A DNA stretch of 64,000 nt. It comes from a virus (Duplodnaviria > Caudoviricetes). Where the stretch lies: positions 1-64,000 of the IMG/VR virus record IMGVR_UViG_3300029288_002061. One strand, 5' to 3'. The notes beneath the pieces were generated by a model, which ran no database searches, was not told the DNA's origin, and was given only the letters and a program-made list of their open reading frames with translations. This document shows, piece after piece, positions 18 through 56,467 of this stretch (its first letter is position 1; every line of letters starts with the position of its first letter). A program made the position numbers and the translations under genes.

Positions 18-53
18 GTTGCAATAATAGCAGGGGGCGAAGCCCCCTGCAAG
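18..53 (-). repeat. 36-nt CRISPR-repeat-like hairpin element (CTTGCAGGGGGCTTCGCCCCCTGCTATTATTGCAAC); alternatively a terminator or sigma70 promoter
   Basis: 9-bp stem GCAGGGGGC/GCCCCCTGC followed by TATTATTGCAAC; last 8 nt differ by one base from the ATTGAAAC handle; same length and same first 6 and last 15 nt as the element at 22148-22183. Confidence 0.55.
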
Positions 54-54
54 A

Positions 55-302
55 GTCGTCTACCTAAATGGATAAACGACAAATAGTTACTACAGCGTTT
101 TCGAGCGCCTTCAAAGAAAGCAACCAAAAACGCAAGTTTCCCTTCGATTGTCAAAGATACTTCCTGCATAACTATGTGCTACTAATGACTTTATATATTT
201 GCGAGCGCCTATTTTAGTACCATCGCTACATAACTACAGTATCCGTACTGACTTATGCCGTTTTTCTGGCATATTGTCGTTATTACAGCACAGGCGCTCG
301 CA
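55..302 (-). ncRNA. Candidate structured ncRNA directly downstream of cas7
   Basis: 13-bp closing stem 290-302/200-212 enclosing nested helices; second three-way domain 83-175; hairpin 55-80; many G-U pairs that work only on the minus strand. Confidence 0.6.
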
Positions 303-1127
303 TTAACCGATGATATCGAATTCAATACCATTCTTACTGCATACGTCTGCAATTTCCTTTTCAGAGCGGAATACAATATCATCGATATCACGGGGATAGT
401 CGATCCCGGCTTTCACAGTCGGCATAACCAGCTTTGAAAGCACATTGTAGTTTACCTTCCGCTTTTGTTGCTGAAATACGTAGATCTTACAGGTACAGGA
501 TCGTCCGAGTGCTGCAGACCCCTTATAGTCATAGGCACGGAAAGCGGCCTGCAAAAGAAGCTCAAGATCATCATCGGTAACGCCATTGACCTTTCCCATA
601 TCGGGGAAATAATTGATATTGGCCTGATATACCGAATAGGGAATGAAAGACCGCTTTGCAAAAGATCCTTGTTTTCCGTCTTCACGGGACGGCGTAGTCA
701 TACTGACATTGACGGTTTCGACTTCAGATACCGAATAGAATTCAGGGATCTGTACGGCACCGACAATAGGAGATCCTTCACAGAAAGTAGCCCCGAAGAG
801 TCGTGCATCGACAAAATCAGCACAGAACTTCTTTCGCGGATCAATTTCTTCTGTATCCTTTTCCTTACCTTTGGTCTTTTTTGCGTTCTTTACCCCGTAC
901 TGAGCAAAGATATCATTAAGATTCTGTCCGCGCTTGCAGTAGATCTTATTACCTTCGGATTCCATATAGCCACGGATACGGGCTTTATAGGACACCCCGG
1001 TAACTAGTCCACGACCATCGGGCATGATTCGCGGAGCGCCCTCATTATCGGGATCACCATTCAAATTACCCATGACACATTCGATGATCGGATACGCATT
1101 GATAGTGTTCTTACTGGAAATCTTCAT
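303..1127 (-). CDS. cas7: Cas7 (type I-C / Csd2-like) backbone subunit
   Basis: NGDPDNEGAPRI, GLVTGVSYKARIR, DARLFG, GAVQI and GVTDDDLELL motifs; start moved to ATG 1127 behind AGAAAGG. Confidence 0.9.
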   Translation of the reverse strand: MKISSKNTINAYPIIECVMGNLNGDPDNEGAPRIMPDGRGLVTGVSYKARIRGYMESEGNKIYCKRGQNLNDIFAQYGVKNAKKTKGKEKDTEEIDPRKKFCADFVDARLFGATFCEGSPIVGAVQIPEFYSVSEVETVNVSMTTPSREDGKQGSFAKRSFIPYSVYQANINYFPDMGKVNGVTDDDLELLLQAAFRAYDYKGSAALGRSCTCKIYVFQQQKRKVNYNVLSKLVMPTVKAGIDYPRDIDDIVFRSEKEIADVCSKNGIEFDIIG

Positions 1128-1140
1128 GTTAGTGCCTTTC

Positions 1141-1617
1141 TTAATCTTCTTGGTCTTCAATCTGGTTATTTTCGACAACTTCACAGGTACCGCTTTCTTC
1201 GTTTTTGTCTTCTTTTTCCGTTTTTGACGCTTTCAGCATGTCGATAAAGGACTTCATTTCTTGGTAGAACCCATACTCGAATGCAATATTCTGTTCCGGA
1301 TTGAGCCTCTTTTGGAAGTTTGGGCCGATTTCCTGTAAAATCTCTCCATAACGCTGTTCCAGCTTATTACCGAAAGCTACGTTCTTACAGTAATAACGGA
1401 TATTTCCACCGTTTTGTACAAGAAACCTCTCCGGATTTGCTTTAATGCCGTTCACGTTCTTTACCGCATACGTCGGGGAACAGTACAAAGACTCCCGTTT
1501 ATCATAGTCTTTATAGCTATTCTGCTTTTGTCGCGAGGCACAAGACAGGATAAAGAACAATCTTCCCGTGTCAGACGCTTTCTTGGCTTCCGGAGTCTTA
1601 AATTCTCCATTCTCCAT
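1141..1617 (-). CDS. cas11: Probable internally translated Cas11 small subunit (158 aa, in frame within cas8c)
   Basis: GGAGGT Shine-Dalgarno 9 nt before in-frame ATG at 1617, just before the GRLF helical domain, as established for type I-C cas8. Confidence 0.65.
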   Translation of the reverse strand: MENGEFKTPEAKKASDTGRLFFILSCASRQKQNSYKDYDKRESLYCSPTYAVKNVNGIKANPERFLVQNGGNIRYYCKNVAFGNKLEQRYGEILQEIGPNFQKRLNPEQNIAFEYGFYQEMKSFIDMLKASKTEKEDKNEESGTCEVVENNQIEDQED

Positions 1618-3066
1618 GATTGAATTACCTCCCTCGGTTTCCCTTGTCAATGCCAATCGAATCATAGCCGGAACAACAATATTATACTGTGATAGCCGAT
1701 ATCGACGGAAATATCTAACAAGCTCTGATATCACGAATGACGGTACAGGAGCTTTATCCGTAGAATTCAGCAAGAATTCTGTGAATGATTCTGCCCATTT
1801 AGGCAATACTTCGGAATAAATCTTCTTATCCATATCGAATTTCTTATGAATCCTTGCGTGGATTTCGTTCTTTTCATCCGGAGCCAATACACTTGTACAG
1901 AACTCTTCAAGAAGCGTATCAACGATGGATTTCCTGATTCCCGTCTTGCTAATCTTCGCAACAAGGGCATTGAAGAATGCTTGCCCTCCAAGATCATCAT
2001 AAACAGCTTTAAGAGAATTAACCATGACCGATGCCGGAATGTCTTTTCCCTCGGTAAAGGTAAATCTGGTATCGGCTCCGCCCATTCCAAATCGGACGAT
2101 ATGGCACATGTCCGCGCCGTAGGCACTTGTAGCATTATTGAACTTTTTGGTTACTGACAGAAAATTCGATACCGATTTTTCCGGATTAAGGAACTTTACA
2201 AAGTCTTCCACTTCTTTAATAGCACTCACAAAGAGCATGTCCTTGGAGGACTTATGAAAGGTCTTATTGCCGATAACGATATCGTCATAGGCAAACTTTA
2301 CCTTATCCGCACACTCCGAGCATATATAGAGGTCGCATCCGCCATAATAGCGTGACGTATCATCCTCTGTTGTCATCAATACTGCGCCAGTAGTACGTCC
2401 TTTTACTCCCTTGACAATCCCTAGCTTCTGCGTCTTCTTCACGTATTTTCCTGTTTTTTGGCAATACGGGCAAAATCCAGACTTACCGGTACTGTCATCA
2501 CGATAGGTATTGAAGTATCCTGACCAGATTTCTTGGAAATCAGGGTCTTCCACAAAGAAAGACTCATTAATAACGTCTACCGAGAACGCGGCTGTCAAAG
2601 ATACTTTCCCATCGCTGCTTTTAAGCCCTTTTTCAATAAGTCCATCCAACAAGTTTTGTGACAGAGGCTTTGAAACGCAATCAACAATTTGCTGGATCCC
2701 GGCAAGGATCTTCTTGGGTGCTTTTACTTGCTTTGCGTAGTCAAGGAATCGTTTATATATTGCTACCGTTCCTTCCTCCCCGTCAAAAGCCGGTCGCCGC
2801 TTAGGCCAATTACTAAAGAGATAGGCACACCCATCGATACCAAAGCGTGTATCAATATTGCTTGATCTGGAAAGCTGCAAAAGTCGCGGTGCCAATAGCT
2901 TAACAAAATGGGCCTTTGGGTTGTCAATATCTACGCAATCCCTTACAGCGACAATTTCTCCATTTTTGATAACCAACTTTACATTGGCTTTCAAATACTC
3001 AAAAGCAGTATAGTCATACTCAGGAGTTGCTCTATTCGTATAGTCGATAAGCCAGCTCAATGACAT
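1141..3066 (-). CDS. cas8c: Divergent Cas8c/Csd1-like large subunit
   Basis: 641 aa between cas5 and cas7; RSSNI motif, CPYC...CSEC zinc finger, C-terminal GRLF and EQNIAFEYGFYQE motifs. Confidence 0.75.
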   Translation of the reverse strand: MSLSWLIDYTNRATPEYDYTAFEYLKANVKLVIKNGEIVAVRDCVDIDNPKAHFVKLLAPRLLQLSRSSNIDTRFGIDGCAYLFSNWPKRRPAFDGEEGTVAIYKRFLDYAKQVKAPKKILAGIQQIVDCVSKPLSQNLLDGLIEKGLKSSDGKVSLTAAFSVDVINESFFVEDPDFQEIWSGYFNTYRDDSTGKSGFCPYCQKTGKYVKKTQKLGIVKGVKGRTTGAVLMTTEDDTSRYYGGCDLYICSECADKVKFAYDDIVIGNKTFHKSSKDMLFVSAIKEVEDFVKFLNPEKSVSNFLSVTKKFNNATSAYGADMCHIVRFGMGGADTRFTFTEGKDIPASVMVNSLKAVYDDLGGQAFFNALVAKISKTGIRKSIVDTLLEEFCTSVLAPDEKNEIHARIHKKFDMDKKIYSEVLPKWAESFTEFLLNSTDKAPVPSFVISELVRYFRRYRLSQYNIVVPAMIRLALTRETEGGNSIMENGEFKTPEAKKASDTGRLFFILSCASRQKQNSYKDYDKRESLYCSPTYAVKNVNGIKANPERFLVQNGGNIRYYCKNVAFGNKLEQRYGEILQEIGPNFQKRLNPEQNIAFEYGFYQEMKSFIDMLKASKTEKEDKNEESGTCEVVENNQIEDQED

Positions 3067-3689
3067 GTCAGAGTCTCCTTCTTGGCATTCTCATATTCAA
3101 CCCAGCCATTTTCTACGTTGGCATAGAAAAAAGTTGGGTTCTTCCGCGTTACTTTGTCAATGTTGAAGTAAGCCAGACCAAGCGGAAGATTGATGGTATT
3201 CTTCATCCTTAGCGCGTCTTGAACCGGAATAGATTCAAAATATGCAATAAAGTCGGATCGACCCATACAGGGATGTCCTTTGATACAATTCCCTGTTCTT
3301 GCGCTCTCAAGGAAAATTGCGTGATACTTCGCCTCATTACAGTCTTTTCGTCTTTCTGGCAGAATCTGATCCTTATTCAGTTCAATACGGGCAATCGCCG
3401 TATACTTCGGTTTGAATAAGCATCTTTGGATTCGCTGTTGAGGCTCATTATGCCCAAAATCCTTATACTCATTAACCATCAGCTGTACAGTAGAGGGGAT
3501 TTCGTGCAAGAACAACTTTTCAACCACATATTTAAACTGTGGTTTACGGTAGATTTTTGAAAAAACAGCCGTTACTGCCGATTCCGGCGGAAGAAGCTGT
3601 GAAATCGGATCTGCTTGTGTACCCGGAATAGTCCACAAAGCCAAATCACCCCAGAAAGTAATAGCAACTCTTTTTTGTTCCGTGTACAT
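3057..3689 (-). CDS. cas5: Cas5 (type I-C / Cas5d-like)
   Basis: WGDLALWT, PESA...IYRKP, NE, QQR and PCMGRSDF (cf. PYLGxREF) motifs; overlaps the cas8 start. Confidence 0.85.
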   Translation of the reverse strand: MYTEQKRVAITFWGDLALWTIPGTQADPISQLLPPESAVTAVFSKIYRKPQFKYVVEKLFLHEIPSTVQLMVNEYKDFGHNEPQQRIQRCLFKPKYTAIARIELNKDQILPERRKDCNEAKYHAIFLESARTGNCIKGHPCMGRSDFIAYFESIPVQDALRMKNTINLPLGLAYFNIDKVTRKNPTFFYANVENGWVEYENAKKETLTCH

Positions 3690-3709
3690 ACAGTCCCTTT
3701 CTGTTATGC

Positions 3710-3746
3710 ACTATACTAGATAAAACAACCGAAGTCAAGAGAAAAA
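3710..3746 (-). promoter_or_regulatory. Early sigma70-type promoter of the cas operon
   Basis: TTGACT (3733-3738), 17 bp, TATAGT (3710-3715), preceded by ATTTTTCTC as in the other copies. Confidence 0.85.
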
Positions 3747-3843
3747 TAATTATTTTTATGCTTTTGGTGTTCCTTTTATATTTGCTGTTAGGCCACTGAT
3801 TACCCCGCCGGACGGCGTACAGCTTGAAATTGTGATCCATTTT

Positions 3844-4884
3844 TCATTCTCCGTGCTTGAAGCAATATTCCGGGCTAACCGCCTTAAACGACATATACTT
3901 ACCGTTGATGGGTTCACAGGTGCGGAATACCAGACCTTCCGCCTGAGTACCGTTCTTGTACCGCGCCTTGGCGACTTCTGACATGATTTCTTCAATGGTT
4001 TCCCATTTGAACGTCCCCTGAAAGTACAGATCAGCCATCGGGAGGCTATACATGGAACAGAAAAGAAGCATGTCGGAGTACGAAAGAGCCTGTTTGTTAA
4101 AGTACACGTTGAACACCCGGATTTCCGGCTCTTTCAGGGTTTCCGAGTTACCCTGAATCTTCGGGCCGACGATTTCCGACTGAATCACGTATCCGGCGGG
4201 GATGTCGGCCAGCCTGTATTTCTTTGCCATTTCCCAGTACACCCCGTCATTGAGGCTCAGTTCCTGATTGCGGGAACACACCCGGAGCTTCTTTCCCTGC
4301 CGGATGAAGGTGGCGCTGGTACCATCGTGCTTGATCGTGGCATAGCACTGATTGCCCTTGAAGAAGCGGAGACGCGCCATGCAGCCCTGAATGCGGTCTT
4401 CATCGGTCTTCGATACCAATTCGGTCGGGAACGACCCGTTGGGTTCAAAATACCCGAAAAGGCCAAAGAGCTTCCACCGGAGATAGCTGTACCACTTGGC
4501 AAAGAAGCCCTTCTGGACGTTATTCGACTTACCCTGATCGGGAGTCTCTTTCTCAAACTTCGTCACCCCAACCAGCGCGGTAACGTCGGTTCCGTCGGCA
4601 TACGTACCCGTGGGGAGGATACTCATGGGGAAGCAGATACCCTGAGAGTAGAATCCCCGGATTTTCATGGTCTTGACCCGGAATTTCTTGTCACGGAGGA
4701 ATTCAAACTCCGGCTTTTCCGGGAGGACGCTATCGACCTGTACGTAAACGCACTGATCCCCGACCTTGAATTCGTCTTTCTTGACAACAACCATCCAGCC
4801 AAGGACGGCGGCGATTTCGACCTTATCGGCGTTTTCGTGCGGTACGATAGCGGTAATGGTTTCAACAGTGGCAAGCGTGTTCAT
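3844..4884 (-). CDS. RNA ligase (DRB0094/Rnl2-like, N-terminal OB domain)
   Basis: HENADKVE N-terminus, KTDEDRIQ, motif I KHDGTS, CSRN, EIVGPKIQGN, EGLVFR, SFKAVS. Confidence 0.88.
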   Translation of the reverse strand: MNTLATVETITAIVPHENADKVEIAAVLGWMVVVKKDEFKVGDQCVYVQVDSVLPEKPEFEFLRDKKFRVKTMKIRGFYSQGICFPMSILPTGTYADGTDVTALVGVTKFEKETPDQGKSNNVQKGFFAKWYSYLRWKLFGLFGYFEPNGSFPTELVSKTDEDRIQGCMARLRFFKGNQCYATIKHDGTSATFIRQGKKLRVCSRNQELSLNDGVYWEMAKKYRLADIPAGYVIQSEIVGPKIQGNSETLKEPEIRVFNVYFNKQALSYSDMLLFCSMYSLPMADLYFQGTFKWETIEEIMSEVAKARYKNGTQAEGLVFRTCEPINGKYMSFKAVSPEYCFKHGE

Positions 4885-4908
4885 AGATTCCCTTTCATTA
4901 TTCGTTTA

Positions 4909-5424
4909 TTATATTTTACATGCACCGGCTGCAAGCAATCTTGCTTCAACAATCTTATGCACATCCACGAACGTCATACCATCTGGGATCTCTACAAAAT
5001 GTACGTTTTCACATGCACCGACCTCGATATCAAAGTCAGAAAATATCTTTTCAAGAGCCGCGTAAATCTTATCATTTTCTATATCATCAATACCCCCGAA
5101 TCCGTCGTCCGGCCCGCACATAAAAGAAACGGTATCCCCGGAAAGCGGCCCCATTTCAAATGGGCAATTCAATTTTGCCTTACTTGGCGACTTTATCCCG
5201 ATGGTAGTATTACTCGTGTTCGCTGGTTTTGTGGCATTACTTTGGACTGACGGCTGTTTGTATGTAGCCGCCACGGGCGAATCATTTTCCTCTTTTTCAG
5301 GTTCTTTATCAAAAAGCGCCATGCCGTCTTTCTGTACTATCCCAATAGCACAAAGAGGACATACTTTTTCGATATTATCACAATCATCAAACACAAGATT
5401 ATTACACTTTGAACAAATATACAT
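4909..5424 (-). CDS. Hypothetical protein with N-terminal zinc ribbon
   Basis: CSKC...CPLC; AAAGGGA RBS. Confidence 0.6.
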   Translation of the reverse strand: MYICSKCNNLVFDDCDNIEKVCPLCAIGIVQKDGMALFDKEPEKEENDSPVAATYKQPSVQSNATKPANTSNTTIGIKSPSKAKLNCPFEMGPLSGDTVSFMCGPDDGFGGIDDIENDKIYAALEKIFSDFDIEVGACENVHFVEIPDGMTFVDVHKIVEARLLAAGACKI

Positions 5425-5456
5425 ACTTTTCCCTTTCATTGTCTGAGAAAAACCCA

Positions 5457-5554
5457 AGCCGGTTGGAGCCTTCTACACCATCAGGGCAGCTCCGTGTGGT
5501 ATTACCCCGGTTAATCAGACCGTGGCGGATGGTTACACCCTTTCGGAACCGGCT
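5457..5554 (-). ncRNA. Candidate ~100-nt pseudoknotted RNA downstream of an early promoter
   Basis: Closing stem AGCCGGTT/AACCGGCT, GAAA tetraloop hairpin, internal hairpins, ACCATC/GATGGT long-range pairing, followed by a T-run. Confidence 0.45.
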
Positions 5555-5597
5555 ACTTATTTGTTTTGCAGACGTATGCAGTTCCCTTTACCCCTAT

Positions 5598-5634
5598 AGC
5601 ATACACCACCGGAAGCGGGAAGTCAAGAGAAAAA
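5598..5634 (-). promoter_or_regulatory. Early sigma70-type promoter
   Basis: TTGACT 5621-5626, 17 bp, TATGCT; palindromic site 5565-5582 just downstream. Confidence 0.75.
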
Positions 5635-5642
5635 TACGAATT

Positions 5643-6098: not shown

Positions 6099-6112
6099 AG
6101 ACAGTCTCCTTT

Positions 6113-7006: not shown

Positions 7007-7019
7007 TTATAGCTCCTTA

Positions 7020-7274: not shown

Positions 7275-7337
7275 AATTTCCTCCTTTTCTTCTATCACTA
7301 TACGCGATCTTAGACGGAAAGTCAAGAGAAAAATCAG

Positions 7338-7368
7338 AAAAATAAACCCCAACCTTTCGGCTGGGGTC
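7338..7368 (-). terminator. Intrinsic terminator after the tRNA cluster
   Basis: ACCCCAGCC-GAAA-GGTTGGGGT followed by TTATTTTT. Confidence 0.75.
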
Positions 7369-7398
7369 GGTTCCGAAGATACTATCTCCGGTGGGGTT

Positions 7399-7474
7399 TG
7401 GCGGGTTCTAGGGGAATTGAACCCCTGTTTAGAGATCGACAATCTCTCGTACTAGACCACTATACGAAGAACCC
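7399..7474 (-). tRNA. tRNA-Asp(GTC)
   Basis: Cloverleaf, AGAGA-TTGTCGA-TCTCT arm, GTTCAATTCC T arm, encoded CCA. Confidence 0.95.
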
Positions 7475-7476
7475 TT

Positions 7477-7551
<75 letters not shown>

Positions 7552-7560
7552 GTATAATTT

Positions 7561-7636
7561 TGGGTTGACTGGTCGTAATCGAAACGACGTTTCGGGAGCC
7601 ACAATCCCGCGCCTGAGCCTCTAGGCTACAGCCAAC
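7561..7636 (-). tRNA. tRNA-His(GTG)
   Basis: Cloverleaf with G-1:C73, TTGTGGC loop, encoded CCA. Confidence 0.92.
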
Positions 7637-7845
7637 ATGTTTACTACAAAAGGCATAGGATGATAAATGTCGCCCACCCTATACCGGTTCCGATTTTATA
7701 CTCCAAGACACAACCAAGAGCAAAGATACATACGATTGTCAGACACTTCTCAGCTTTCATGGCAATCCTCTTTCTTAAAGAAAAAGCCCCTGTCTCTCCG
7801 GGGTGTCACGCCTTTTTAGTCAGGGCGGCGTCTCCTGCTTTTTCT

Positions 7846-7920
7846 TGGTCGCGGGAGAGGGGATTGAACCCTCGACCTTGAGGTTATGGGCCTCACGAGC
7901 TACCTCTGCTCCATCCCGCT
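7846..7920 (-). tRNA. tRNA-Met(CAT), initiator-like
   Basis: CCCATAA loop, 1:72 mismatch (A.G), encoded CCA; promoter TTGACA 7955-7960 / TATACT 7932-7937. Confidence 0.9.
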
Positions 7921-7969
7921 ATGTTTATCCTAGTATACTTAATCAAAACCGCTTTGTCAAGAAATTACA

Positions 7970-8227: not shown

Positions 8228-8279
8228 GGCACACCTCTTTATCCTATATTTTTACTGCATACGTATGCAGTAGATTATT

Positions 8280-8353
8280 TGGTTACTCCGGAAGGTACTG
8301 CCCCTTCACCACGGGATTCAAATTCCCGGATTCTACTATTAAACTACGGAGTA
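8280..8353 (-). tRNA. tRNA-Gln(TTG), atypical D and T loops
   Basis: TACTCCG/CGGAGTA acceptor stem, CGGGA-ATTTGAA-TCCCG arm, T loop GGCAGTA, encoded CCA. Confidence 0.85.
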
Positions 8354-8357
8354 TCAT

Positions 8358-8720
8358 TCAAGTATTATATGTCTTTCCAGAAAGAATATCACCCACACTT
8401 ATCTTTCCAAGATATCGGTATTTGTGATATCCACAGGTATCCCAAGAGACTTTGTAAATATGCCCGTCCTTCCTATCCTCTTTTTTGTCTTTTCCGGGAG
8501 TGTGCCCGACATATTCATACACATTGATAAAGGAATTCATATCTATGGGCTTTACCGTGTCCCCATTCTCTGCATCCGTAATTTGGTCGTCAAGGATAGA
8601 TTTAATAGCACCCATCGGTGTCTTATACACCAACGAATCATAGTCGAATTCATCCATGATCTTGTAGAAGTCGCCAACGTTAAGATTATCATCATATCTT
8701 GGAGCATACATGATTTCCAT
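8358..8720 (-). CDS. Hypothetical protein
   Basis: 120-aa ORF in tight operon. Confidence 0.6.
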   Translation of the reverse strand: MEIMYAPRYDDNLNVGDFYKIMDEFDYDSLVYKTPMGAIKSILDDQITDAENGDTVKPIDMNSFINVYEYVGHTPGKDKKEDRKDGHIYKVSWDTCGYHKYRYLGKISVGDILSGKTYNT

Positions 8721-8724
8721 TATT

Positions 8725-9030: not shown

Positions 9031-9040
9031 CTCGAACTCC

Positions 9041-10962: not shown

Positions 10963-10989
10963 GGCGGATCCTTACTGCATATGTCTGCA

Positions 10990-14050: not shown

Positions 14051-14147
14051 AGCTTCCCTTTCTTTTTGCAGACGTATGCAGTTGTTTTCACTTCTGTACT
14101 ATACCCGATCAGAGCAGAAAAGTCAAGTAAAAAATAACTTTTTTGTA

Positions 14148-16299: not shown

Positions 16300-16357
16300 G
16301 TTATTCCCTTTCTGTAATCCCCGACCCCTTGCCGGGTACCTTTGTCACATATCCGGT

Positions 16358-16389
16358 ATTGCAATAGAGCAAGTGAATAACCTTGCAAG
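16358..16389 (-). repeat. 32-nt variant of the hairpin-ATTGCAA element
   Basis: CTTGCAAGGTTATTCACTTGCTCTATTGCAAT, ~20 nt downstream of the promoter at 16410-16438. Confidence 0.45.
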
Positions 16390-16464
16390 AGTTTGATGTC
16401 CACATCATTACTATACCCGGTCAAGGGGAGAAAGTCAAGAGATTTTTACGAATTATTTCAGAAA

Positions 16465-17583: not shown

Positions 17584-17632
17584 TTTTGTTCCCCTTTCTT
17601 GGGAGGTTTACTGCACACGCATGCAGTTTGAA

Positions 17633-18049: not shown

Positions 18050-18135
18050 TTTTATCCCTTATCTTTTCAGCCTCTTTGCTGACTCTTACACTGTACACTA
18101 CGGGAAAAAGAAAGTCAAGAGAAAAATTATTATTT

Positions 18136-18791: not shown

Positions 18792-18882
18792 GTTTTTCTC
18801 CCTGTTTTGTTATCAAGCCCCTTGCTTGACCTTTATACTATACCCGATGATTCTTTCTTAGTCAAGAGAAAAATCAGAAAAA

Positions 18883-21998: not shown

Positions 21999-22070
21999 AG
22001 TTTCCCACCTTTCTACGGATAATATACCTGATAATCCGCCGGAAGTCAAGAGAAATTTTAATAAAATATC

Positions 22071-22100: not shown

Positions 22101-22117
22101 TGACTGCATACGTCTGC

Positions 22118-22183
22118 ACCGGCATACCACTTGATCTTGACACCCTTGTTGCAATAATAGCAAGTAGCCTAATTACTTGCAAG
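22118..22183 (-). CRISPR. Candidate solitary repeat-spacer unit
   Basis: 36-nt CTTGCAAGTAATTAGGCTACTTGCTATTATTGCAAC (22148-22183) followed by 30 nt sharing 20 identical bases with the adjacent gene (22119-22138 = 22250-22269). Confidence 0.45.
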
Positions 22184-22185
22184 AT

Positions 22186-23424: not shown

Positions 23425-23526
23425 AGTATTTCTCCTTTATTTCCCATAGTTGAGACAGCCCCTTGCCATCTCTACTTGTACTGTACCCGACTTTTCCACA
23501 AAAGTCAAGAGAAAAATAGAAAAATA

Positions 23527-42502: not shown

Positions 42503-42556
42503 CGCACACCCTCACAACAAGACTAAGACAACAAGCACAACTGCATACGTATGCAG

Positions 42557-47813: not shown

Positions 47814-47817
47814 GTCA

Positions 47818-48833: not shown

Positions 48834-48868
48834 CGCTTACTCCCGTCGTGCCAACGTCTTATAACAAA

Positions 48869-49093: not shown

Positions 49094-49110
49094 GATTGTT
49101 ACTCCTTTTC

Positions 49111-50061: not shown

Positions 50062-50070
50062 AGAAAATCC

Positions 50071-50427: not shown

Positions 50428-50456
50428 TTACACTCCTTTATTCCCTTATTATACAT

Positions 50457-50500
50457 ATTGCAATAATAGTAAATAACCAGTTGAAGGAAAAGTTATCTAC
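50457..50500 (-). promoter_or_regulatory. Hairpin-TATTATTGCAA element (possible late promoter or RNA processing site)
   Basis: GTAGATAAC/GTTATTTAC stem then TATTATTGCAAT, after the capsid terminator. Confidence 0.5.
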
Positions 50501-50514
50501 AAAAGTGTTCTAAC

Positions 50515-50546
50515 ACAAAGCCGGGGGCGGTATTTCACCCCCGGCC
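50515..50546 (-). terminator. Terminator after the major capsid gene
   Basis: GC-rich stem GCCGGGG...CCCCGGC then TTTGT. Confidence 0.65.
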
Positions 50547-50572
50547 CTATGAGTCTCCTATGTGCGACCTAC

Positions 50573-51922
50573 TTAGTAGGTCAGCTCACGGCGGCGGATG
50601 TTAACGGCCTTAACCACCGCGTCAACGTTTTCGACCGCGCAATCGACTTGGTTGTACACGATACTTTCGATCTGGTCGGTATTCTTGTTGAACTCGGTGA
50701 AGATACGGGTTCCGTCGAGAATGCCCCAGACAAAGTTTTTCGGGTTAACAAGGAAAATCGCGCTACCTTCGTTAGCCGTGGTGTACGTGCCGCTACCAAC
50801 ACCGCTATAGGTGACAGGAGCGAGGGGAACAGTCGGATCAGCGGGGGCAGGATCAGCCGCAAAGCCAAGGGTCGTATAGGCTTGGGACGCAACCGCAACC
50901 GGCATCAGGACAATGGAGCTGGCCACGCCAACCGTCGGAGATTCCAGACGAATCTGACCCATACGGTTATCTGTTGCCACAGCTTCGTACTGAATGCCAT
51001 AAGCGACGTTAGCAACAAGGGTGTCATTGATCTTCTTGCAGACATCCGTGGTGTTCAGCGTGCCGTGATTCAGTGTAACCGTCACAAGGCCAAGACCGTC
51101 GATGTTCAGGATCATGGTGTCGTTGTCCGCGCTGATCTCGAACGGGCCATACTTCACGCCAACAACCTGAGCGGCCTTACCGCTGTTGATGGTGATCGGC
51201 ATATCGTCGGGGATGAGAGGAACACGGGTCATCGAAGTACCAAGAGGGGCCATTTCAGCACCTTGGAGAGCCGCGTCACCCAGCATAGTACCACGGTCAC
51301 TGACCGTATCGTTCCAGTCAACCGCCAGAGAGTCACCAATGAGCCAACGCAGGGCGGGGTCGTTCTTATATTGCTTGGGCATAGCACGCTTCATCGCGGC
51401 GAACATACCCTTTGAGATGCTGTCACCTTTGACATCGACCACATGAGCGTTATCGGTGAGTTTCAAGATACCGTCGAAACGGCGCAGAAGTCCATTGGTT
51501 GTCAGCGTGGTATCACCCTGAATGAAGAGCATTTCAAGGTCAGTCGCGATACGTTCAACCATGGTGTCCATGATGGTCTGTTCAAAATCGTTCTGTTCGA
51601 TGTTGCCCTGCAGAGCTTCCGTGGTGATGTTCCAAGCCGAACGGACCTTCTTCGCCACCAGAGTGATACGCTGGAACTTGGCGCGGCTCAGATTGCCAGT
51701 GTCAACGCCTTCGTCAACGCTTTCCGTGACCGGTTCACCAACCCAGAGCTTATCGATGTCCATCATCGGACGGGGCATCTCAACAAAACGGGTCTGGGGC
51801 AGAAGCACGCTGAATTTCTTGACGAGCGTGATAAACTGCTTCTGCTGTTGCGGGTTCAACAGACCACCAGTGGTCATATCCGCAGTCTTGATACTCTTTT
51901 CGAGCATTTCACCATTACGCAT
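50573..51922 (-). CDS. Major capsid protein (HK97 fold) with inserted domain
   Basis: GGLLNPQQ...FI, ITTEALQGNIE, DLE...IQGD, FDGILKL, NPKNFVWG. Confidence 0.92.
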   Translation of the reverse strand: MRNGEMLEKSIKTADMTTGGLLNPQQQKQFITLVKKFSVLLPQTRFVEMPRPMMDIDKLWVGEPVTESVDEGVDTGNLSRAKFQRITLVAKKVRSAWNITTEALQGNIEQNDFEQTIMDTMVERIATDLEMLFIQGDTTLTTNGLLRRFDGILKLTDNAHVVDVKGDSISKGMFAAMKRAMPKQYKNDPALRWLIGDSLAVDWNDTVSDRGTMLGDAALQGAEMAPLGTSMTRVPLIPDDMPITINSGKAAQVVGVKYGPFEISADNDTMILNIDGLGLVTVTLNHGTLNTTDVCKKINDTLVANVAYGIQYEAVATDNRMGQIRLESPTVGVASSIVLMPVAVASQAYTTLGFAADPAPADPTVPLAPVTYSGVGSGTYTTANEGSAIFLVNPKNFVWGILDGTRIFTEFNKNTDQIESIVYNQVDCAVENVDAVVKAVNIRRRELTY

Positions 51923-51962
51923 TGTGTTCCTCCTATAAATTCAATTTAGACAGTCTTTAAGA

Positions 51963-53900
51963 CTACATCTTACTCGTGGCTTTGTTAGCCGCAATGTTAA
52001 ACAGACCATTGAACACGCCTTCATTGGTACTCTTTTCAATTTCCAGACGACCGTTGCTACGGCTCTTAGCAATGCCGGGAGCCTTGGTGAGGCTTTCAAT
52101 CGTCTTTTGCTGCGCTTCGATAATGCTTTGGAGCTTCTGCACCTTGGAGTCAAACCCCTTGGCAAGCTCTGTAGCAAGACCCTTGACAAGATTCAGGGTT
52201 TCCTTCTTGGACTTGCCGAATTCATCGTCCTTACCCATCTGCGGGAGCTTTGCCGTAGCAGCGATAGCATTGCTGAGAACGTTCTTGGCTTCCGACGCCC
52301 CACCTTCCGGGCCTTCGGCAGACTTGGCATATTCGGGCTGCTTATCCGCACCGGTAACGTTGGTGGAGGCAATGTCGGTCGAACCGCTAACCTTGTCATC
52401 ATTGGCATCCATGAAGTCACCACCGGGGGCGAACACGCCTTGTTCCTTAATCAGCTTCGCCATTCCCATAACCGACTGGGGAACAAACTTTTCCTTGAGG
52501 ACTTGACCGGCGAGAACAAACCGGACATCACTCAGGGCTTTGGCGAGCGTCATACCAACGCGGTCGGCCTTCTTGGGGTTCAAACCCTTGGCAAGCGGGG
52601 TGTGCTGCATCAGAAGAGCGATTTCGGAGAGCATACCGGCCACATTGACCGTCTTTTGCTGCTTCGCGAGCATCTTCTGCCGATGGGCCTTGAGGACAGC
52701 CTTGGCCGCCATAAGCTCTTCGTCAGACCATTCGCCGCCGTCGTTCATATCGACATCCGCGCCCATGTCCATTTCACCGCCCATGCCACCCATACCGTCG
52801 TCCATTCCCATGCCGTCATCCATACCGGCATCGGCAACAGCGGCGTCCGCGCCTTCCAGCTCTTCCATACCTTTGTCCATCTCATCAGCGACCGGGGCGG
52901 GAGCCGCACCAGCGTCACCAAAGAGTTCACCGGATTCACCGGCACCGGCATCAACGGGAGCGACCGTACCGGCATTGACTTCAGCGGCAGGATCAATCAC
53001 ATCGCCACCAGCATTCGCGTCAGTAGCGGCTTGCATCATAGCATCGTCACCAGCTACCGCGTCACCTCCAACGTTGTCTTCCAGCATGGCACCTTCGTCC
53101 TCTGCGAGAAAACTGTCCAACGGGAAACCGTCCTGTTGGGTGTTGGGATCTTCCGCAATGTCCTTCATGAGTTTCGCCATCGAGTTACCTCCATTTTTAA
53201 TGAGCTTTCCTATCTGGGCAAGAAATTGAGTTCCTGTACTGACATCCTTTGTAAGTCCTTCTATTTCTTGACCTTCTACCTTTTGATTATCACTATCAGA
53301 AATATCCTTTTCAAGCGATGTCGGTTGAAGGCCATCGAAGGCGTTCAATTCTTGTAGCGACTTCATAACCGCTCCGATAAAACCGGTACGGGGGTTGGCA
53401 GCCATTTCCTTTCGGGTACAGGCTACGTGGTCAAGAGCGACTTTGTTGATCTGGCGAACCATCTTGCCGGATTTGTCAAAAGCCACGCCGATTGCATCTT
53501 TTTCTGTGTGGGGAACGGAACCGCCGATACTGAGCTGTTTGGCACAATTCCCGTCCAAGACTTCCTTGTAAAGAGAACGGGCTTCCGGGAAGGAATCGTC
53601 AAGCTCAATGTCTACCATGACTTTCCAGAAAGGAGAGCCATTCTTGTCTTTATCCATAATGAGATTTGCGTCAACTGTGCGGCCAAAACCAAAGGTAGAA
53701 CGGTGATTATCAATAAGGTCAACGCCCTTCTTGAACTGTTCTACCATTCCCTGCAAGGCTTTTTGTGTCATCTGATCGTTTTCAAGATCGGTAAGGCTGT
53801 CACTCACAATGGCTGTGACGTGCGGCTTTCCCTTATCGTCCGTATAAGCCTTGGACAGATTGGTTGTGGCGACCCATTTTGCCAATGCCAATTCCGCCAT
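51963..53900 (-). CDS. Prohead protease-scaffold fusion
   Basis: DLEND, NH, LSIGG, LDHVA, ANPRT; acidic low-complexity scaffold region. Confidence 0.85.
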   Translation of the reverse strand: MAELALAKWVATTNLSKAYTDDKGKPHVTAIVSDSLTDLENDQMTQKALQGMVEQFKKGVDLIDNHRSTFGFGRTVDANLIMDKDKNGSPFWKVMVDIELDDSFPEARSLYKEVLDGNCAKQLSIGGSVPHTEKDAIGVAFDKSGKMVRQINKVALDHVACTRKEMAANPRTGFIGAVMKSLQELNAFDGLQPTSLEKDISDSDNQKVEGQEIEGLTKDVSTGTQFLAQIGKLIKNGGNSMAKLMKDIAEDPNTQQDGFPLDSFLAEDEGAMLEDNVGGDAVAGDDAMMQAATDANAGGDVIDPAAEVNAGTVAPVDAGAGESGELFGDAGAAPAPVADEMDKGMEELEGADAAVADAGMDDGMGMDDGMGGMGGEMDMGADVDMNDGGEWSDEELMAAKAVLKAHRQKMLAKQQKTVNVAGMLSEIALLMQHTPLAKGLNPKKADRVGMTLAKALSDVRFVLAGQVLKEKFVPQSVMGMAKLIKEQGVFAPGGDFMDANDDKVSGSTDIASTNVTGADKQPEYAKSAEGPEGGASEAKNVLSNAIAATAKLPQMGKDDEFGKSKKETLNLVKGLATELAKGFDSKVQKLQSIIEAQQKTIESLTKAPGIAKSRSNGRLEIEKSTNEGVFNGLFNIAANKATSKM

Positions 53901-53903
53901 GTT

Positions 53904-55829
53904 TTACTCCTTATCACTGATTACCGATTTGATGAGAAGATCTATTAGAATCTTCTTTTCCACCGGAAGACCACTACTTTCGATCATGCTTTGGATCTTC
54001 ATAAGTTCAATGTTACCATAGGTATTACGGTTATATCCACTGCCAACCTCTGCGGTCACTTCTTTTTCAGCATTTTCGTCTTGACCGCCTTGGTCTTGGG
54101 CTTCTCCGGCATTGTCTCCAAGTCCGCCGAAAATGTCATCCAAACCCATTGCGTCTCCGGCACCCATATCCATACCGCCGCCCATTCCACCGCCCATACC
54201 GGGCATTCCGCCACCGGCTCCGGGCTGTTGCTGGCCTTGTTGCTGGATCTTGTTCATTTCCTTGGTATAAAGACGTTCATTCTTCCAGTCATCCTTGACA
54301 GCTTCGGACTGGTGGAGCGTCATCTGGGCCATACTGACCTGAATCGGCTTATTGGCGAAAGCATAATCCATCGGATAAGGATCTTTACCGATTGATTCCC
54401 TGAGTTCATTCGGGGTCAACGCGCCAAGAGCGGCATAGGTCTGATCCATGCGGGCCAAATCCAGAGGATCTGTAAGCTTCATTCGTTCAAACCGGAAAGT
54501 AACTACGATTTCGTCCGATTTAAGTCCAAGAAGGGCCGGAATGAGCTTTTGGTTGATAATGTATTCCTTTTCCAACCGATCCGGCTCAAATTCCTGTTCA
54601 TTGGTGATTTCGCGGCTACAGGCCGCCGATGCCCTATTGGTAGAGTCACTGGCAAAGAACACCTGACCGATACCAAAACACTCCCGGATTTCCTCGTCAT
54701 TGGCTTCCCGGTAGGTCTGGAACGAGGCGTCTTCAGTAACGCCTACCGTGAGGGGTTTTAGGTCAATGGTCGGGCCGCCGCCGGACTTGTCAAAGCCTGT
54801 ATTCTGTTGTTCCGCTTGGATAATCAGGCAGTTATGGGACTTTTCCAGTCCAAGGGACTTACCCTTGAAATAATCCTCGATCTGTTGCAGGGTTTCGGCA
54901 CCCAGTTTTCCGCCCGATACCATGACCGCCATACGGGGAACCGCGTCATTCTCAAAGAATTTGACATTCCGGATAGCCGCAAATCTGTTACCAGTAATCG
55001 CCGGGGCTGCCGAGATATAACGGGGCGCGCCGTACCAGTAATTCATGGGTGTGTAGAGCCGGAAATGAATGACTTCGGTAGCCATATCATCAGGATCAAC
55101 GTTGGAGTCTTTGAAATACTCACCGGTACTGGCCGACATCGGTCGGGTATCACCGAATTCCTTGAAATACACCTTGTCATTGCCTTGAATCTGGACAAAT
55201 CCGTGTACTTCTTTATCCCCGTTATCGTCTGTAGTCACCCGCTTCCGCATCGTAATGGCCGGAATATGGTAGATATTAGTGATTATCCCATAAATGTTTC
55301 TGACAATTTCGAGATAGCCGTTACCGGTGGTTTCTTCGTCAACTTTGAGGTTGTAGAAGATTGAATTGGTCGGCATGTCCTCATTAGGGTTGGAAAACAG
55401 GCGATCAATGATAGCGGTTTGCTGTTTTACCCGTTCTTTGACCGTTTCTTCCGTCTCTTTGGTGATTTTGAGCTTAGGTTCAATGTGCCAACCCAAACCG
55501 AGCGTATTTCTAGCATAAGTACGGATTGACCTACCAAGACGGGTGTTATTTTCAACCGTAGCGGCTAGGACTTCCGGATTATGCTGGGGTTCGACATATT
55601 CACCACCGGCAAGCTCTTTGAAAGGATCCCCGGTAAGTTGACGGCTGGCCGCCGCGCCGGTATCCCGGTAGACCTGTTTCCCTGTTCTGTCATCACGATA
55701 ATGAGCGAGTCTGTTGTTCCCTTTGGACAAGTGAAGCTGTCCGAGTACCCCCATCATATTGTCAACAGAGGTATCTCCGAGCCGCATCTTCTCAATAGGG
55801 CTGACTTCAAGGGCGTCTTCTTCAGACAT
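53904..55829 (-). CDS. Portal protein (PBSX-like)
   Basis: GNGYLEIVRN, EVIHF, YGAP, FFENDAVP, TPNELRE. Confidence 0.92.
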   Translation of the reverse strand: MSEEDALEVSPIEKMRLGDTSVDNMMGVLGQLHLSKGNNRLAHYRDDRTGKQVYRDTGAAASRQLTGDPFKELAGGEYVEPQHNPEVLAATVENNTRLGRSIRTYARNTLGLGWHIEPKLKITKETEETVKERVKQQTAIIDRLFSNPNEDMPTNSIFYNLKVDEETTGNGYLEIVRNIYGIITNIYHIPAITMRKRVTTDDNGDKEVHGFVQIQGNDKVYFKEFGDTRPMSASTGEYFKDSNVDPDDMATEVIHFRLYTPMNYWYGAPRYISAAPAITGNRFAAIRNVKFFENDAVPRMAVMVSGGKLGAETLQQIEDYFKGKSLGLEKSHNCLIIQAEQQNTGFDKSGGGPTIDLKPLTVGVTEDASFQTYREANDEEIRECFGIGQVFFASDSTNRASAACSREITNEQEFEPDRLEKEYIINQKLIPALLGLKSDEIVVTFRFERMKLTDPLDLARMDQTYAALGALTPNELRESIGKDPYPMDYAFANKPIQVSMAQMTLHQSEAVKDDWKNERLYTKEMNKIQQQGQQQPGAGGGMPGMGGGMGGGMDMGAGDAMGLDDIFGGLGDNAGEAQDQGGQDENAEKEVTAEVGSGYNRNTYGNIELMKIQSMIESSGLPVEKKILIDLLIKSVISDKE

Positions 55830-56137
55830 TATCCGATATTATCCTCATAGACGAGACGGACGGCACAACCGGCGGTGAGTTCACACGTAACTACCGAATT
55901 GCCTACCGTAATAGGGAAAGGATTATCTACCGTTGGAAGGATACGTTCATCCGTGAAAGTATCTTCCAGAATGGTATAGACGTTGGGTGATACGCCACAT
56001 TTGAGGGTTACAGTCCCGGTTCCGGCACCAAACATAGCCAGAATACGCCAAGGTGAGGCCGAGTATTGAAACGTCGGCCCCACCTGTTGCGTTACGCCAG
56101 CAACCCCGCCAAAGACTTCCTGCACGACCACTGACAT
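55829..56137 (-). CDS. Hypothetical virion protein
   Basis: ORF coupled to the portal gene. Confidence 0.55.
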   Translation of the reverse strand: MSVVVQEVFGGVAGVTQQVGPTFQYSASPWRILAMFGAGTGTVTLKCGVSPNVYTILEDTFTDERILPTVDNPFPITVGNSVVTCELTAGCAVRLVYEDNIG

Positions 56138-56151
56138 AATCGGCCTCTCTC

Positions 56152-56379
56152 TTAGTAAATGAACGTGATGTACTTGAGCGGGCCGCGAGCGGCAAGAGCA
56201 GCCTTAAACGCGGCAAAGTCGGCAGACGCGGAGGTAATCGTGTAAAGGTCATTGACTTCCTGAGCGAGAGCAACAACCGCATCGCGGGTGACTTGCATAT
56301 CGCCAAGACCTTCCGAGTAATTACCCTTGATCGTGACAACTTGGCTATCGCCCAGAACCTTCTTGTGAGACATCGACAT
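56152..56379 (-). CDS. Hypothetical protein
   Basis: AAGGAG RBS. Confidence 0.55.
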   Translation of the reverse strand: MSMSHKKVLGDSQVVTIKGNYSEGLGDMQVTRDAVVALAQEVNDLYTITSASADFAAFKAALAARGPLKYITFIY

Positions 56380-56429
56380 CGTAAGACTCCTTTTTCTGTT
56401 TTTGTAGACAACGTGAACAAACACACTTA

Positions 56430-56467
56430 GTTGCAATAATAGCAAGGACTTCTACTAGGGTGCCTTG
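56430..56467 (-). promoter_or_regulatory. Hairpin-TGCTATTATTGCAAC element upstream of the head operon
   Basis: CAAGG/CCTTG stem; last 15 nt identical to the copies at 18 and 22148. Confidence 0.5.

Follow-up and report, generated by a model that had tools for sequence, protein, structure and literature searches.

Solitary copies of a CRISPR repeat in a tailed phage that carries its own type I-C-like system

The hairpin element that recurs in the intergenic DNA of the tailed phage analysed here is a CRISPR repeat, that of a type I-C-like system which the phage itself encodes. Outside the arrays it occurs as single copies which, judged by comparison with related phages, were inserted between genes, in transcribed DNA and in the sense direction, and which only the cas-bearing lineage has been seen to carry. 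We put at roughly 0.5, an even chance, the probability that these solitary copies are crRNA-like units that would be processed by the phage Cas5c.

The element is the repeat of a phage-encoded CRISPR system

The DNA comes from IMG/VR record IMGVR_UViG_3300029288_002061 (Duplodnaviria; Caudoviricetes), a 106-kb record that is ~79% complete and whose positions 1-64,000 are called the window here. A sequence-only reading of the window had described five solitary elements, all intergenic and on the minus strand, and had likened them to the CRISPR repeats of a Cas5d-type system. All five were located as claimed. In sibling contigs of the same phage we found cas5-cas8c-cas7, a leader, array 1, cas3, a second leader and array 2 (17 repeats), in this order, and the 36-mer identical to positions 18-53 is repeated in L031, L032 and L033 with spacers of 33-38 nt. 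The presence of the same 36-mer in regular arrays beside cas5-cas8c-cas7-cas3 bears out the assignment to a Cas5d/Cas5c-type system. The order of genes and arrays in the sibling contigs also indicates that the copy at 18-53 is repeat 1 of array 1, so that the description as solitary holds for the copies at 16358, 22148, 50457 and 56430 and fails for this one. The left end of the window comprises the following features (bit scores here and below are from covariance model R1, which was trained on array repeats and solitary copies, copy 56430 being left out of the training).

1..17, minus strand: beginning of the first spacer of array 1, cut off by the end of the contig
18..53, minus strand: first repeat of array 1; CTT, 9-bp stem GCAGGGGGC/GCCCCCTGC, loop TTC, tail TATTATTGCAAC; R1 56 bits
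54..302, minus strand: CRISPR leader separating cas7 from array 1; conserved blockwise in L030, where Cas7 identity is only 61%
303..1127, minus strand: cas7; Pfam Cas_Cas7, E = 4.5e-42; called product 274 aa
1141..3066, minus strand: cas8c (Csd1); Pfam Cas_Csd1, E = 1e-12, full profile length
3057..3689, minus strand: cas5c/cas5d, presumed pre-crRNA endonuclease; Pfam Cas_Cas5d at the cut-off

In L033 a repeat-spacer-repeat unit follows immediately past the window's leader. The same first repeat is followed by a different first spacer in other assemblies (L033, L032), and the leader-proximal spacers vary between assemblies. In L031 one array has 5 repeats and the other 17; their period is 68-72 nt, and the spacers, of 32-38 nt, are all unique. 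A leader box, TCTTTGACAAYCGAA, recurs in the leader of array 2, and a Cas3-like helicase of 738 aa with a Cas3-like_C_2 domain is encoded after array 1. No cas1 was found in the 106-kb record (~79% complete) or among the array-flanking genes of L031 and L032, and no cas6 among the annotated proteins around the locus. The Cas5 of the phage, whose Pfam match lies just at the cut-off, is presumed to be the endonuclease from its sequence, a predicted activity: its matches in the PDB are type I-C Cas5 proteins (3KG4, 8DEX, 7KHA and 3VZI), and in a comparison with Cas5c proteins of solved structure the Lys-His pair is matched in its Lys, with the His shifted by one residue.

None of the array spacers had a significant match in the sequences compared or in cultured phages, nor a match in two IMG/VR scans in which every sixth base was left free, so that no protospacer was available for reading the PAM of the system. 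Host arrays were sought in representative genomes covering 185,579 species of bacteria and archaea. An exact two-repeat pattern returned nothing, and a looser array pattern gave 114 matches, none with this hairpin or 5' end.

Structure and number of the copies

The array repeat consists of a 3-nt overhang, a 9-bp stem, a 3-nt loop and a 12-nt tail. The solitary copies likewise consist of 3 nt, a stem and a 12-nt tail ending ATTGCAAC/T; the stem base and the tail are conserved in them, and the loop and the upper stem are free to vary. Given a cut 1 nt after the stem, as in the B. halodurans repeat, the handle would be 11 nt long.

Searching the whole 106-kb record with the covariance model retrieved seven copies, at 18, 16358, 22148, 50457, 56430, 89406 and 95413, the last two of which lie outside the window; 50457 was a weak match (E = 0.6). 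The six copies other than 18 are solitary units outside the arrays, with no second repeat within 70 nt. Every copy is intergenic and sense-oriented, and all lie 20-55 nt 5' of a ribosome-binding site and start codon. The sequence-only reading had held that the copies at 18 and 22148 are both 36 nt long and that stems differ yet remain paired, and both points stood: 92% of the cells are paired, 5 of the 9 pairs are altered on both sides and the covariation score was reached by none of 500 shuffles. The exact 12-mer TATTATTGCAAY occurs four times; with one mismatch allowed, 4 were found against 0.83 expected, and at least 4 were seen in 1 of 100 shuffles. A hairpin abutting the 12-nt tail is significant for 18, 16358, 22148 and 50457. 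The hairpins of the copies at 56430 and 95413, which we call class B, are weak (CAAGG/CCTTG with a 15-nt loop at 56430, z = -0.3). In Rfam, neither CRISPR-DR nor any other RNA family matches the repeat. The solitary copies in the window and the features around them are as follows.

16344..16408, minus strand: 65-nt insertion bearing the 16358 unit; L149, L150 and L187 lack it and have TATAGTATAAAGGTACCC at the site
16358..16389, minus strand: solitary repeat unit; stem GCAAG/CTTGC, 11-nt tail TCTATTGCAAT; R1 33 bits
22077..22100, minus strand: intrinsic terminator hairpin 3' of the 22148 unit, followed by a canonical promoter at 22049-22021
22113..22147, minus strand: spacer-like sequence abutting the repeat; begins AAGGGTGTCAAGATCAAGTGGTATGCCGGT and matches the L148 allele
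22148..22183, minus strand: solitary repeat unit of 36 nt; stem GCAAGTA/TACTTGC, tail TATTATTGCAAC; R1 50 bits
50457..50500, minus strand: solitary repeat unit; unrelated 10-bp stem GTAGATAACT/GGTTATTTAC, tail TATTATTGCAAT
56430..56485, minus strand: 56-nt cassette with a class-B solitary repeat (56430-56471); R1 28 bits

Solitary copies are present or absent between relatives

Relatives without the element were found for four sites. In a collinear relative (L148/L187/L191) the cas/array cassette is missing entirely, and every orthologous site that could be checked (16358, 22148, 14272 and L031-2053) is free of a unit. It was proposed earlier that finding the motif in related phages that lack the cas operon would speak against a CRISPR origin; the cas-less relative has none. 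This relative was the only one with a readable cas region, and the cassette is missing there, as are all solitary copies. Such co-occurrence with cas could also arise simply because the copies derive from the arrays. In a 92% relative, one additional unit is found at a different site, and it has the stem of 22148. At 16358, sequencing run X1 contains a variant that skips 16344-16408. No RNA data set was listed among the sequencing runs that contain the phage, and the sole run labelled RNA-Seq resembles DNA and contains almost nothing of it.

The copy at 50457 is located between the terminator of the major head protein gene and the adaptor gene. Its orthologue in L152 has three changes in the stem, all of which preserve pairing; they rely on G-U pairs (G-C/G-U), which are workable on the sense RNA only. 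The tail of this orthologue is TTTAATTGAAAT, with the canonical handle ATTGAAAT, and its -10-like box has been lost through the change of TATTAT to TTTAAT. The cassette at 56430 lies upstream of a small gene and the portal gene and is precisely missing from L017 (~76% nucleotide identity), where the insertion site is in or at a native TGGTATAAGT box. A paralogous class-B cassette is found at 95413; the two share an invariant 15-mer, TGCTATTATTGCAA, and are otherwise ~75% alike.

Target-site duplication by a transposase was considered and rejected, the direct repeats flanking the inserts being imperfect and of unequal lengths. The motif was not found in relatives of the portal and head proteins at 40-70% identity, a megablast of 7 kb against cultured phages gave no match, and searches of IMG/VR by Cas7, by the DUF2201 protein and by the gene behind 95413 yielded no relatives. 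The 17-mer of the tail had 11 single matches in IMG/VR, all in coding sequence, which we judged to be chance.

A spacer-like sequence abuts the copy at 22148

The 22148 unit begins 2 nt past the stop codon of an Ig-domain gene. Its spacer-like sequence starts exactly where the repeat ends, and hairpins come next; the terminator and promoter that follow are also present in relatives without the 22148 repeat. The spacer-like 30-mer agrees with the L148 allele of the neighbouring gene at 25/30 positions, every sixth base not being counted; the seed is intact, and the PAM position reads CTC. Positions 1-3 of the 30-mer are mismatched in the allele of the phage itself (22250-22278), which has CGC instead of AAG there. 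A simple local duplication of the phage's own gene was rejected as the origin of this downstream copy, given that three adjacent bases of one codon differ from that gene and that these three bases agree with the allele of the relative.

A recognisable target elsewhere exists for just one of the six solitary copies that the 106-kb record contains, namely 22148, which is also the only one for which a relative is matched and the phage's own site is mutated. At 16358 the spacer-like part matches the -10 region of the unit's own promoter over a short stretch (positions 1-5 and 7-9, TTG lying upstream); for the other solitary units no promoter target was found.

Proposed processing of the solitary units

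Two explanations of the elements had been offered from the sequence alone, namely a distributed array of single repeats whose guides are cut from ordinary transcripts, and promoters. The former is closer to the evidence in that hairpin and handle are kept, the copies occur in the cas lineage only and one of them has a spacer-like guide. Its description as a distributed array did not survive as it stood, since cas3 and two conventional arrays are located just outside the window, past position 1, and one of these arrays includes copy 18.

We infer cleavage, loading into Cascade and a biological role of the units along the following lines. The units would be transcribed within phage mRNAs or right behind a promoter, and the phage Cas5c would cleave at the 3' base of the hairpin. 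The downstream RNA would then start with an 11-nt crRNA handle (AUUAUUGCAAC) and could be bound by Cas5 and Cas7 as a crRNA-like RNA, with the adjacent sequence as its "spacer". At 22148 this would be a true spacer against the rival Ig-domain allele of related phages, the seed mismatches protecting the phage's own allele. For the copies in 5' UTRs, the RNA might serve as a guide against insert-free relatives, as a regulator or as a processing or stability site. If Cas5c cuts the units, a phage CRISPR nuclease would be acting on the phage's own messenger RNAs, and guides against sibling phages would be hard-wired outside the arrays, which would tie CRISPR RNA processing to phage gene expression and to competition among phages in a directly testable way.

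A more elaborate scheme, which we regard as very improbable, is a CRISPR-guided drive in which cutting by Cas5c at an inserted repeat turns the adjacent sequence into a guide against insert-free relatives. During mixed infection Cascade-Cas3 would attack the empty allele, and repair from the carrier would copy the repeat and some of its flank into the rival; the carrier would be safe because the end of the repeat takes the place of the PAM. Such a drive would account for presence and absence among close relatives, ragged co-converted flanks and restriction to the cas lineage. Guide-RNA homing has been shown for TnpB/IscB transposons, and the drive would be its type I analogue.

Promoter activity and other explanations

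Can the copies be explained as portable promoters, the repeat being a strong sigma-A promoter with an extended -10 whose copies persist by starting the downstream operon and carry the hairpin as inherited baggage? We find this doubtful as a general explanation, although part of it stands: the pattern TTGCA-17-TGnTATTAT had been claimed for two copies, and TTGCAA-17-TATTAT with TG is indeed present in 18, where it is read directly, and in 22148, where a promoter scan detected it (TTGCAA/G-17-TATTAT overall). [quoted passage not shown] The distance of 20-55 nt from every copy to a ribosome-binding site and start codon is in line with promoters, as are the insertion of 56430 in or at a native box in L017 and the lack of a canonical TTCTCTTGACT promoter in 23.5-76 kb, the region of 50457 and 56430. 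A further copy, 12 nt 5' of the first repeat of array 2, sits where the promoter of this array is expected and where a usable guide is impossible, and repeat-internal promoters exist in type II-C arrays. Against this, 16358, 50457 and 56430 are not called promoter-like, the last two having no -35. As had been pointed out, 16358 is devoid of TATTAT and lies behind another promoter: it has no good -10 of its own and is situated in a 5' UTR, ~14 nt past the predicted start of a canonical promoter (TTGACT-17-TATAGT at 16438-16410). The 22148 unit scored as promoter-like and also as terminator-like, and RNA started there would be short, as it would end at the terminator ~50 nt on, where a canonical promoter follows. 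The orthologue in L152 retains stem and handle without the key A of the -10, a promoter spacer has no need of stem covariation, and the same operons run in relatives without the element. The pattern TTGCA-17-TGnTATTAT is a built-in property of the repeat and not what defines the elements. Since a 36-nt repeat would fit a TG-extended sigma-70 promoter by chance in ~1 in 1000 cases (a rough estimate from the densities of scan matches), promoter activity is probably real too, and the pattern probably adds transcription starts. A phage sigma factor for the motif is unsupported, as the record contains no sigma-70 region 2 or region 4 domain. Hairpin promoters of the N4 type, read by a virion RNA polymerase, were rejected: there is no giant polymerase and the motif is a CRISPR repeat.

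It is unlikely, in our view, that the copies are functionless by-products, pieces of array scattered by illegitimate or microhomology recombination that survive where harmless and mark the junctions of exchanged modules. Such an origin would agree with insert ends that are not fixed (the extra sequence amounts to 0-29 nt at the 3' end of the unit and to 2-20 nt at its 5' end), with a right junction, GTGACAAAGG, common to two inserts, and with L031, where homology to the cas-less relative restarts exactly at the 3' end of a unit, beside a gene remnant. A hybrid repeat in array 2 and a loop-flipped repeat in array 1 are also signs of recombination between repeats. It fits poorly with copies that are uniformly sense and intergenic, with the unchanged 15-mer of the class-B cassettes, with the retention of the 50457 unit across lineages through pairing-preserving changes, and with a spacer at 22148 that is flush with the repeat end and differs from the phage's own allele in the seed. 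We hold it improbable that the units are decoys, abundant RNAs that absorb Cas5 and Cas7 and so tune the phage's own Cascade or disable a rival's or host's type I-C system. Promoter-proximal solitary repeats of viruses do act in this way, including the type I-C RacrIC1 (PMC10651486); 16358 has their anatomy, and the handle of the orthologue in L152 is the canonical one of type I-C. However, the units match the phage's own repeat and are found in a genome that has cas genes and long arrays itself, so that a decoy would cripple the phage's own system. Moreover, an array with this tail was found in 0 of the 185,579 species' representative genomes, and Racr loci, which mimic a threatening system, are typically unlinked to cas genes (PMC10651486), whereas here the phage's own arrays are matched and cas lies on the same genome.

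Relation to known systems

Compared with type I-C (Dvulg) systems, the phage repeat has the same short 5' overhang, hairpin and 11-12-nt 3' tail ending ATTG-AA-C/T, and its arrays lie beside cas5, cas8c, cas7 and cas3, with no cas6 among the annotated proteins of the locus. In canonical I-C repeats the overhangs measure 2 nt and 11 nt, and the 5' handle that results is 11 nt long; what characterised Cas5c enzymes recognise is the cut site together with the handle that follows it, and the loop plays no part (PMC8524198). The conserved stem base and tail and the free loop of the phage copies correspond to these determinants. Unlike the type I-C repeat (32 nt, 7-bp stem, 5-nt loop, handle ATTGAAAC), that of the phage has 36 nt, a 9-bp stem, a 3-nt loop and the handle ATTGCAAC, occurs with several stem variants within one genome, and forms with its tail and 5' end a sigma-70 promoter with an extended -10. 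It also differs in having no Rfam family, no array with this tail found in the representative genomes of 185,579 species and no cas1 found.

With the Racr units of viruses (Camara-Wilpert et al. 2023, PMC10651486) the solitary copies share their nature as single repeat mimics in phage intergenic DNA, often right behind a promoter, and a type I-C example is known; the promoter-then-repeat layout of 16358 is that described there. They differ in that the phage also has cognate cas genes and two long arrays, that it has at least seven units, those characterised being single, and that its units lie at operon starts and not beside acr genes. Experimental work has identified crRNA-like RNAs of type I-C that have a single repeat, a length of 49-50 nt, an 11-nt handle and a hairpin at the 3' end (bioRxiv 10.1101/2024.12.27.630466). 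The 22148 unit resembles these RNAs, of the CreA/CreR type, in its repeat-like hairpin, 11-nt handle, spacer-like stretch and 3' hairpin. In contrast, they are encoded inside bacterial cas operons and repress by partial pairing with promoters at a TTC/TTA PAM (bioRxiv 10.1101/2024.12.27.630466), whereas the 22148 spacer matches the coding region of the rival allele almost fully. Virus-borne mini-arrays target nearby regions of close relatives and are accompanied by self-protecting mutations (Medvedeva et al. 2019, PMC6858448), which parallels the 22148 spacer, with its match in a close relative, its nearby target and the mutated site of the phage itself. Those mini-arrays, however, belong to archaeal viruses without cas and have a leader and repeats flanking 1-2 spacers (PMC6858448), whereas here effector genes are encoded by the phage itself and the unit contains one repeat only.

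Solitary repeats are thus known in viruses as anti-CRISPR decoys and in bacteria as sources of regulatory crRNA-like RNAs, and mini-arrays are known in cas-less archaeal viruses. Here one tailed phage combines a complete type I-C effector set and cas3 with two arrays and at least seven single repeat copies at operon boundaries, the single copies being present or absent between close relatives.

An extended -10 within the repeat is also a feature of type II-C systems (Neisseria, Campylobacter), in which each repeat has one and transcription can start inside the array; we know of no dispersed solitary copies described for them. The II-C system uses Cas9, and its crRNAs need no 5' repeat handle, whereas transcription that began at the repeat end would, in a type I system, leave the first guide without its handle. 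A repeat that doubles as a near-consensus promoter is unusual in a type I system.

The repeat and its CRISPR-Cas locus

The virus record, whose first 64 kb form the window, is linear, 106,039 bp long (completeness estimate 79%), carries nearly all its genes on the minus strand and is found in sequencing runs from landfill and wastewater metagenomes. The five elements claimed by the sequence-only reading were all recovered at their positions in the window, after which we name them, and copies 18 and 22148 are both 36-mers on the minus strand, as claimed.

Copies of the repeat in the window, read 5' to 3' on their own strand
Copy 18, minus, CTT, stem of 9 bp, loop, tail TATTATTGCAAC
Copy 16358, minus, stem of 5 bp, tail TCTATTGCAAT
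Copy 22148, minus, CTT, stem of 7 bp, loop, tail TATTATTGCAAC
Copy 50457, minus, stem of 10 bp with a sequence unrelated to the others, tail TATTATTGCAAT
Copy 56430, minus, stem just CAAGG/CCTTG, loop of 15 nt, tail TATTATTGCAAC

The 12-mer TATTATTGCAAC is over-represented, and two additional copies, 89406 and 95413, lie beyond the window. A covariance model was trained on ten variants, leaving out the two class-B copies (56430 and 95413); searched against the whole record it returned exactly seven copies, both class-B copies included, and no others. Across the stems of the variants 92% of cells are paired, five pairs have changed on both sides, and the observed covariation was reached by no shuffle.

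Three genes, cas5d/c, cas8c and cas7, occupy the left end of the window, and the phage Cas5 is also similar to solved type I-C Cas5 proteins. When the hairpin of copy 18 was used to scan metagenome contigs, one was found, Ga0265297_10001694, whose last 8.6 kb (L031) come from the same phage, and an exact lookup of the Cas7 protein gave two more assemblies of it, L032 and L033. The first array of L031 contains five exact copies of the 36-mer of copy 18, its spacers being 33-36 nt long; the second numbers 17 repeats, in which two other stems (GCAAGCCGC/GCGGCTTGC and GCAAGGGGC/GCCCCTTGC) precede the tail of copy 18. In L032, cas5-cas8c-cas7 is followed by a 250-nt leader and a repeat joined to array 1's last spacer; after a degenerate repeat come a terminator and a promoter, then the gene for a 738-aa Cas3, and finally a second leader with array 2. 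L033 has the leader, a repeat, a first spacer unlike the others and a second repeat. The leader position in the window (54-302, minus, a stretch of 250 nt after cas7) holds GGCGCTCGC three times, once inverted, and is conserved block-wise with the more distant contig L030, whose Cas7 is only 61% identical and whose end falls inside the same CRISPR repeat. Looking left of position 1, as had been proposed, thus revealed further repeats, through the sibling contigs, in two arrays. The same contigs correct the view of copy 18 (18-53) as solitary: it is repeat 1 of a conventional array within which the contig stops. The repeat matches the geometry of type I-C repeats, and it is nearly certain that the element is the phage's own type I-C repeat, present as one array copy and several solitary copies. 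The whole locus (cas5-cas8c-cas7, array 1, cas3, array 2) forms a cassette of ~8.8 kb.

The leader-proximal spacer differs among the three assemblies of nearly the same phage (window 1-17, L033 4111-4148 and L032 3867-3902). Since these first spacers differ, they point to spacer acquisition that may be ongoing, although a search of the 106-kb record gave no cas1.

Setting of the solitary copies

The phage has a family of ~15 near-identical canonical promoters, each with an A/T-rich stretch, TTCTCTTGACT, 17 nt and TATAGT.

Canonical promoters in the window
3694-3749, 5611-5640, 7311-7343, 13481 and 14131, minus
16410-16438, 18090-18118, 18837-18865, 22021-22049 and 23480-23508, minus

One of them is predicted to drive the cas operon, the motif recurs behind both arrays in L031, and canonical promoters stand at the bounds of the cassette. 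The structural-gene region (23.5-76 kb) has none of this TTCTCTTGACT-17-TATAGT family. A variant canonical promoter at 7965 precedes a cluster of five tRNA genes (7402-7920 and 8283-8353, minus).

Copy 16358 lies ~14 nt past the predicted start of a canonical promoter (TTTTTCTCTTGACT-17-TATAGT). It had been noted that this copy lacks TATTAT and lies behind another promoter, and it has indeed no usable -10 of its own. Viral solitary repeat units are described as having this same layout, with the promoter ahead of a single repeat (PMC10651486).

Copy 22148 begins 2 nt past a stop codon, and the 30 nt behind it are an imperfect match to a stretch of the neighbouring Ig-domain gene 100 nt upstream. 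This 30-mer equals the allele of L148, a relative's contig, at positions 1-5, 7-8 and 10-30, and the L148 allele has CTC at the PAM position. At positions 1-3 of the 30-mer the phage's own allele reads CGC, not AAG; this conservative exchange of Lys for Arg does away with the seed. Virus-borne mini-arrays are known to aim at regions near themselves in sibling viruses and to be accompanied by self-protecting mutations (PMC6858448), and experiments have demonstrated type I-C crRNA-like RNAs that come from single repeats and carry an 11-nt handle and a 3' hairpin (bioRxiv 10.1101/2024.12.27.630466). Behind the 30-mer lie, first, a weak palindromic hairpin, next a terminator and last a canonical promoter. 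Many intergenic sites share an 18-bp palindrome, ACTGCATACGTATGCAGT; the one at 22110, beside the repeat insertion, is inverted relative to L148-L150.

Palindrome ACTGCATACGTATGCAGT in the window, among others
22103-22119, 17610-17627, 14060-14075, 10975-10989, 8250-8267, 5565-5580 and 42541-42556

Copy 50457 is older. Its orthologue in the relative's contig L152 (head protein 86% identical) differs at three stem positions, which pair as G-C in one phage and as G-U in the other, the G-U pairs being possible in the sense RNA only, and its tail, TTTAATTGAAAT, matches the handle canonical for type I-C. L152 has lost the -10-like TATTAT; both phages have a separate TATAAT box a short way downstream. 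The 56-nt cassettes of copies 56430 and 95413, which are paralogues, are ~75% alike, TGCTATTATTGCAA being invariant.

Insertion polymorphism among relatives

At site 56430, exactly 56 nt, ending ...TTGCAAC, are missing from L017 (~76% nucleotide identity over 53-68 kb). Sites 22148 and 16358 are without the element in L148, L149 and L150, where the genes, terminator and canonical promoters are all kept, and 22119-22185 and 16344-16408 are missing from contigs of a variant that co-occurs in the source run. Conversely, the 92% relative L185/L186 carries an extra unit with the stem of 22148 and a 13-nt loop, directly after the stop codon of a gene; at that place (14272) the window has no unit. 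L185 also has an IS605-type TnpB gene (OrfB_IS605, Cas12f1-like_TNB) and a 100-aa gene at 1897-3003; the window has neither at ~13.9 kb.

For distributed single repeats processed by Cas5, the motif in relatives lacking cas genes had been named as the adverse outcome, and the reverse is seen. L187/L191, from the same run as L148 and 80-88% identical, is collinear with window 14.8-3.7 kb and then with the genes located behind array 2 in L031; it has 1.7 kb with two small genes in place of the whole 8.8-kb cas/array cassette, and all its 31 kb contain no unit anywhere. These comparisons identify the solitary copies as insertions that go with the lineage bearing cas.

Processing, promoter activity and other explanations

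Cutting of phage transcripts at the solitary units by Cas5c, the presumed processing enzyme, is the likeliest mechanism, with a probability of about 0.5. It would yield crRNA-like RNAs bearing the handle; the arguments for it are the anatomy, the covariation, the co-occurrence with cas and a single spacer match. Solitary repeats, crRNA-like RNAs and mini-arrays have each been described already, and the phage case is a variant of these; to our knowledge, no phage has been described in which copies of the repeat of a complete type I system of its own are scattered over operon boundaries and vary in presence between relatives.

That the solitary copies are promoter cassettes, as had also been proposed, is unlikely, although one part of the proposal stands. 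The repeat fits a sigma-70 promoter with an extended -10, for which the chance in a 36-mer is ~1 in 1000 (a rough estimate from hit densities), and a copy lies 12 nt ahead of array 2, where a promoter makes sense; on these grounds we think that the repeat probably does fire as a promoter. However, three of the four solitary copies in the window are not promoter-like, copy 22148 is immediately followed by a terminator and another promoter, and orthologous sites manage without the element. Moreover, stem and handle have been kept by selection where the -10 decayed, the opposite being seen only in 89406. The promoter reading is thus incomplete as an account of the solitary copies.

Racr-like decoys (RNA anti-CRISPRs) are an improbable explanation of the solitary copies, and by-products of recombination are slightly less so, though still doubtful. 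Within the arrays of L031, one array 1 repeat (8373-8408) has a flipped loop, GAA for TTC, and one array 2 repeat (4749-4784) is a hybrid of both stem variants with broken pairing, which suggest recombination among repeats.
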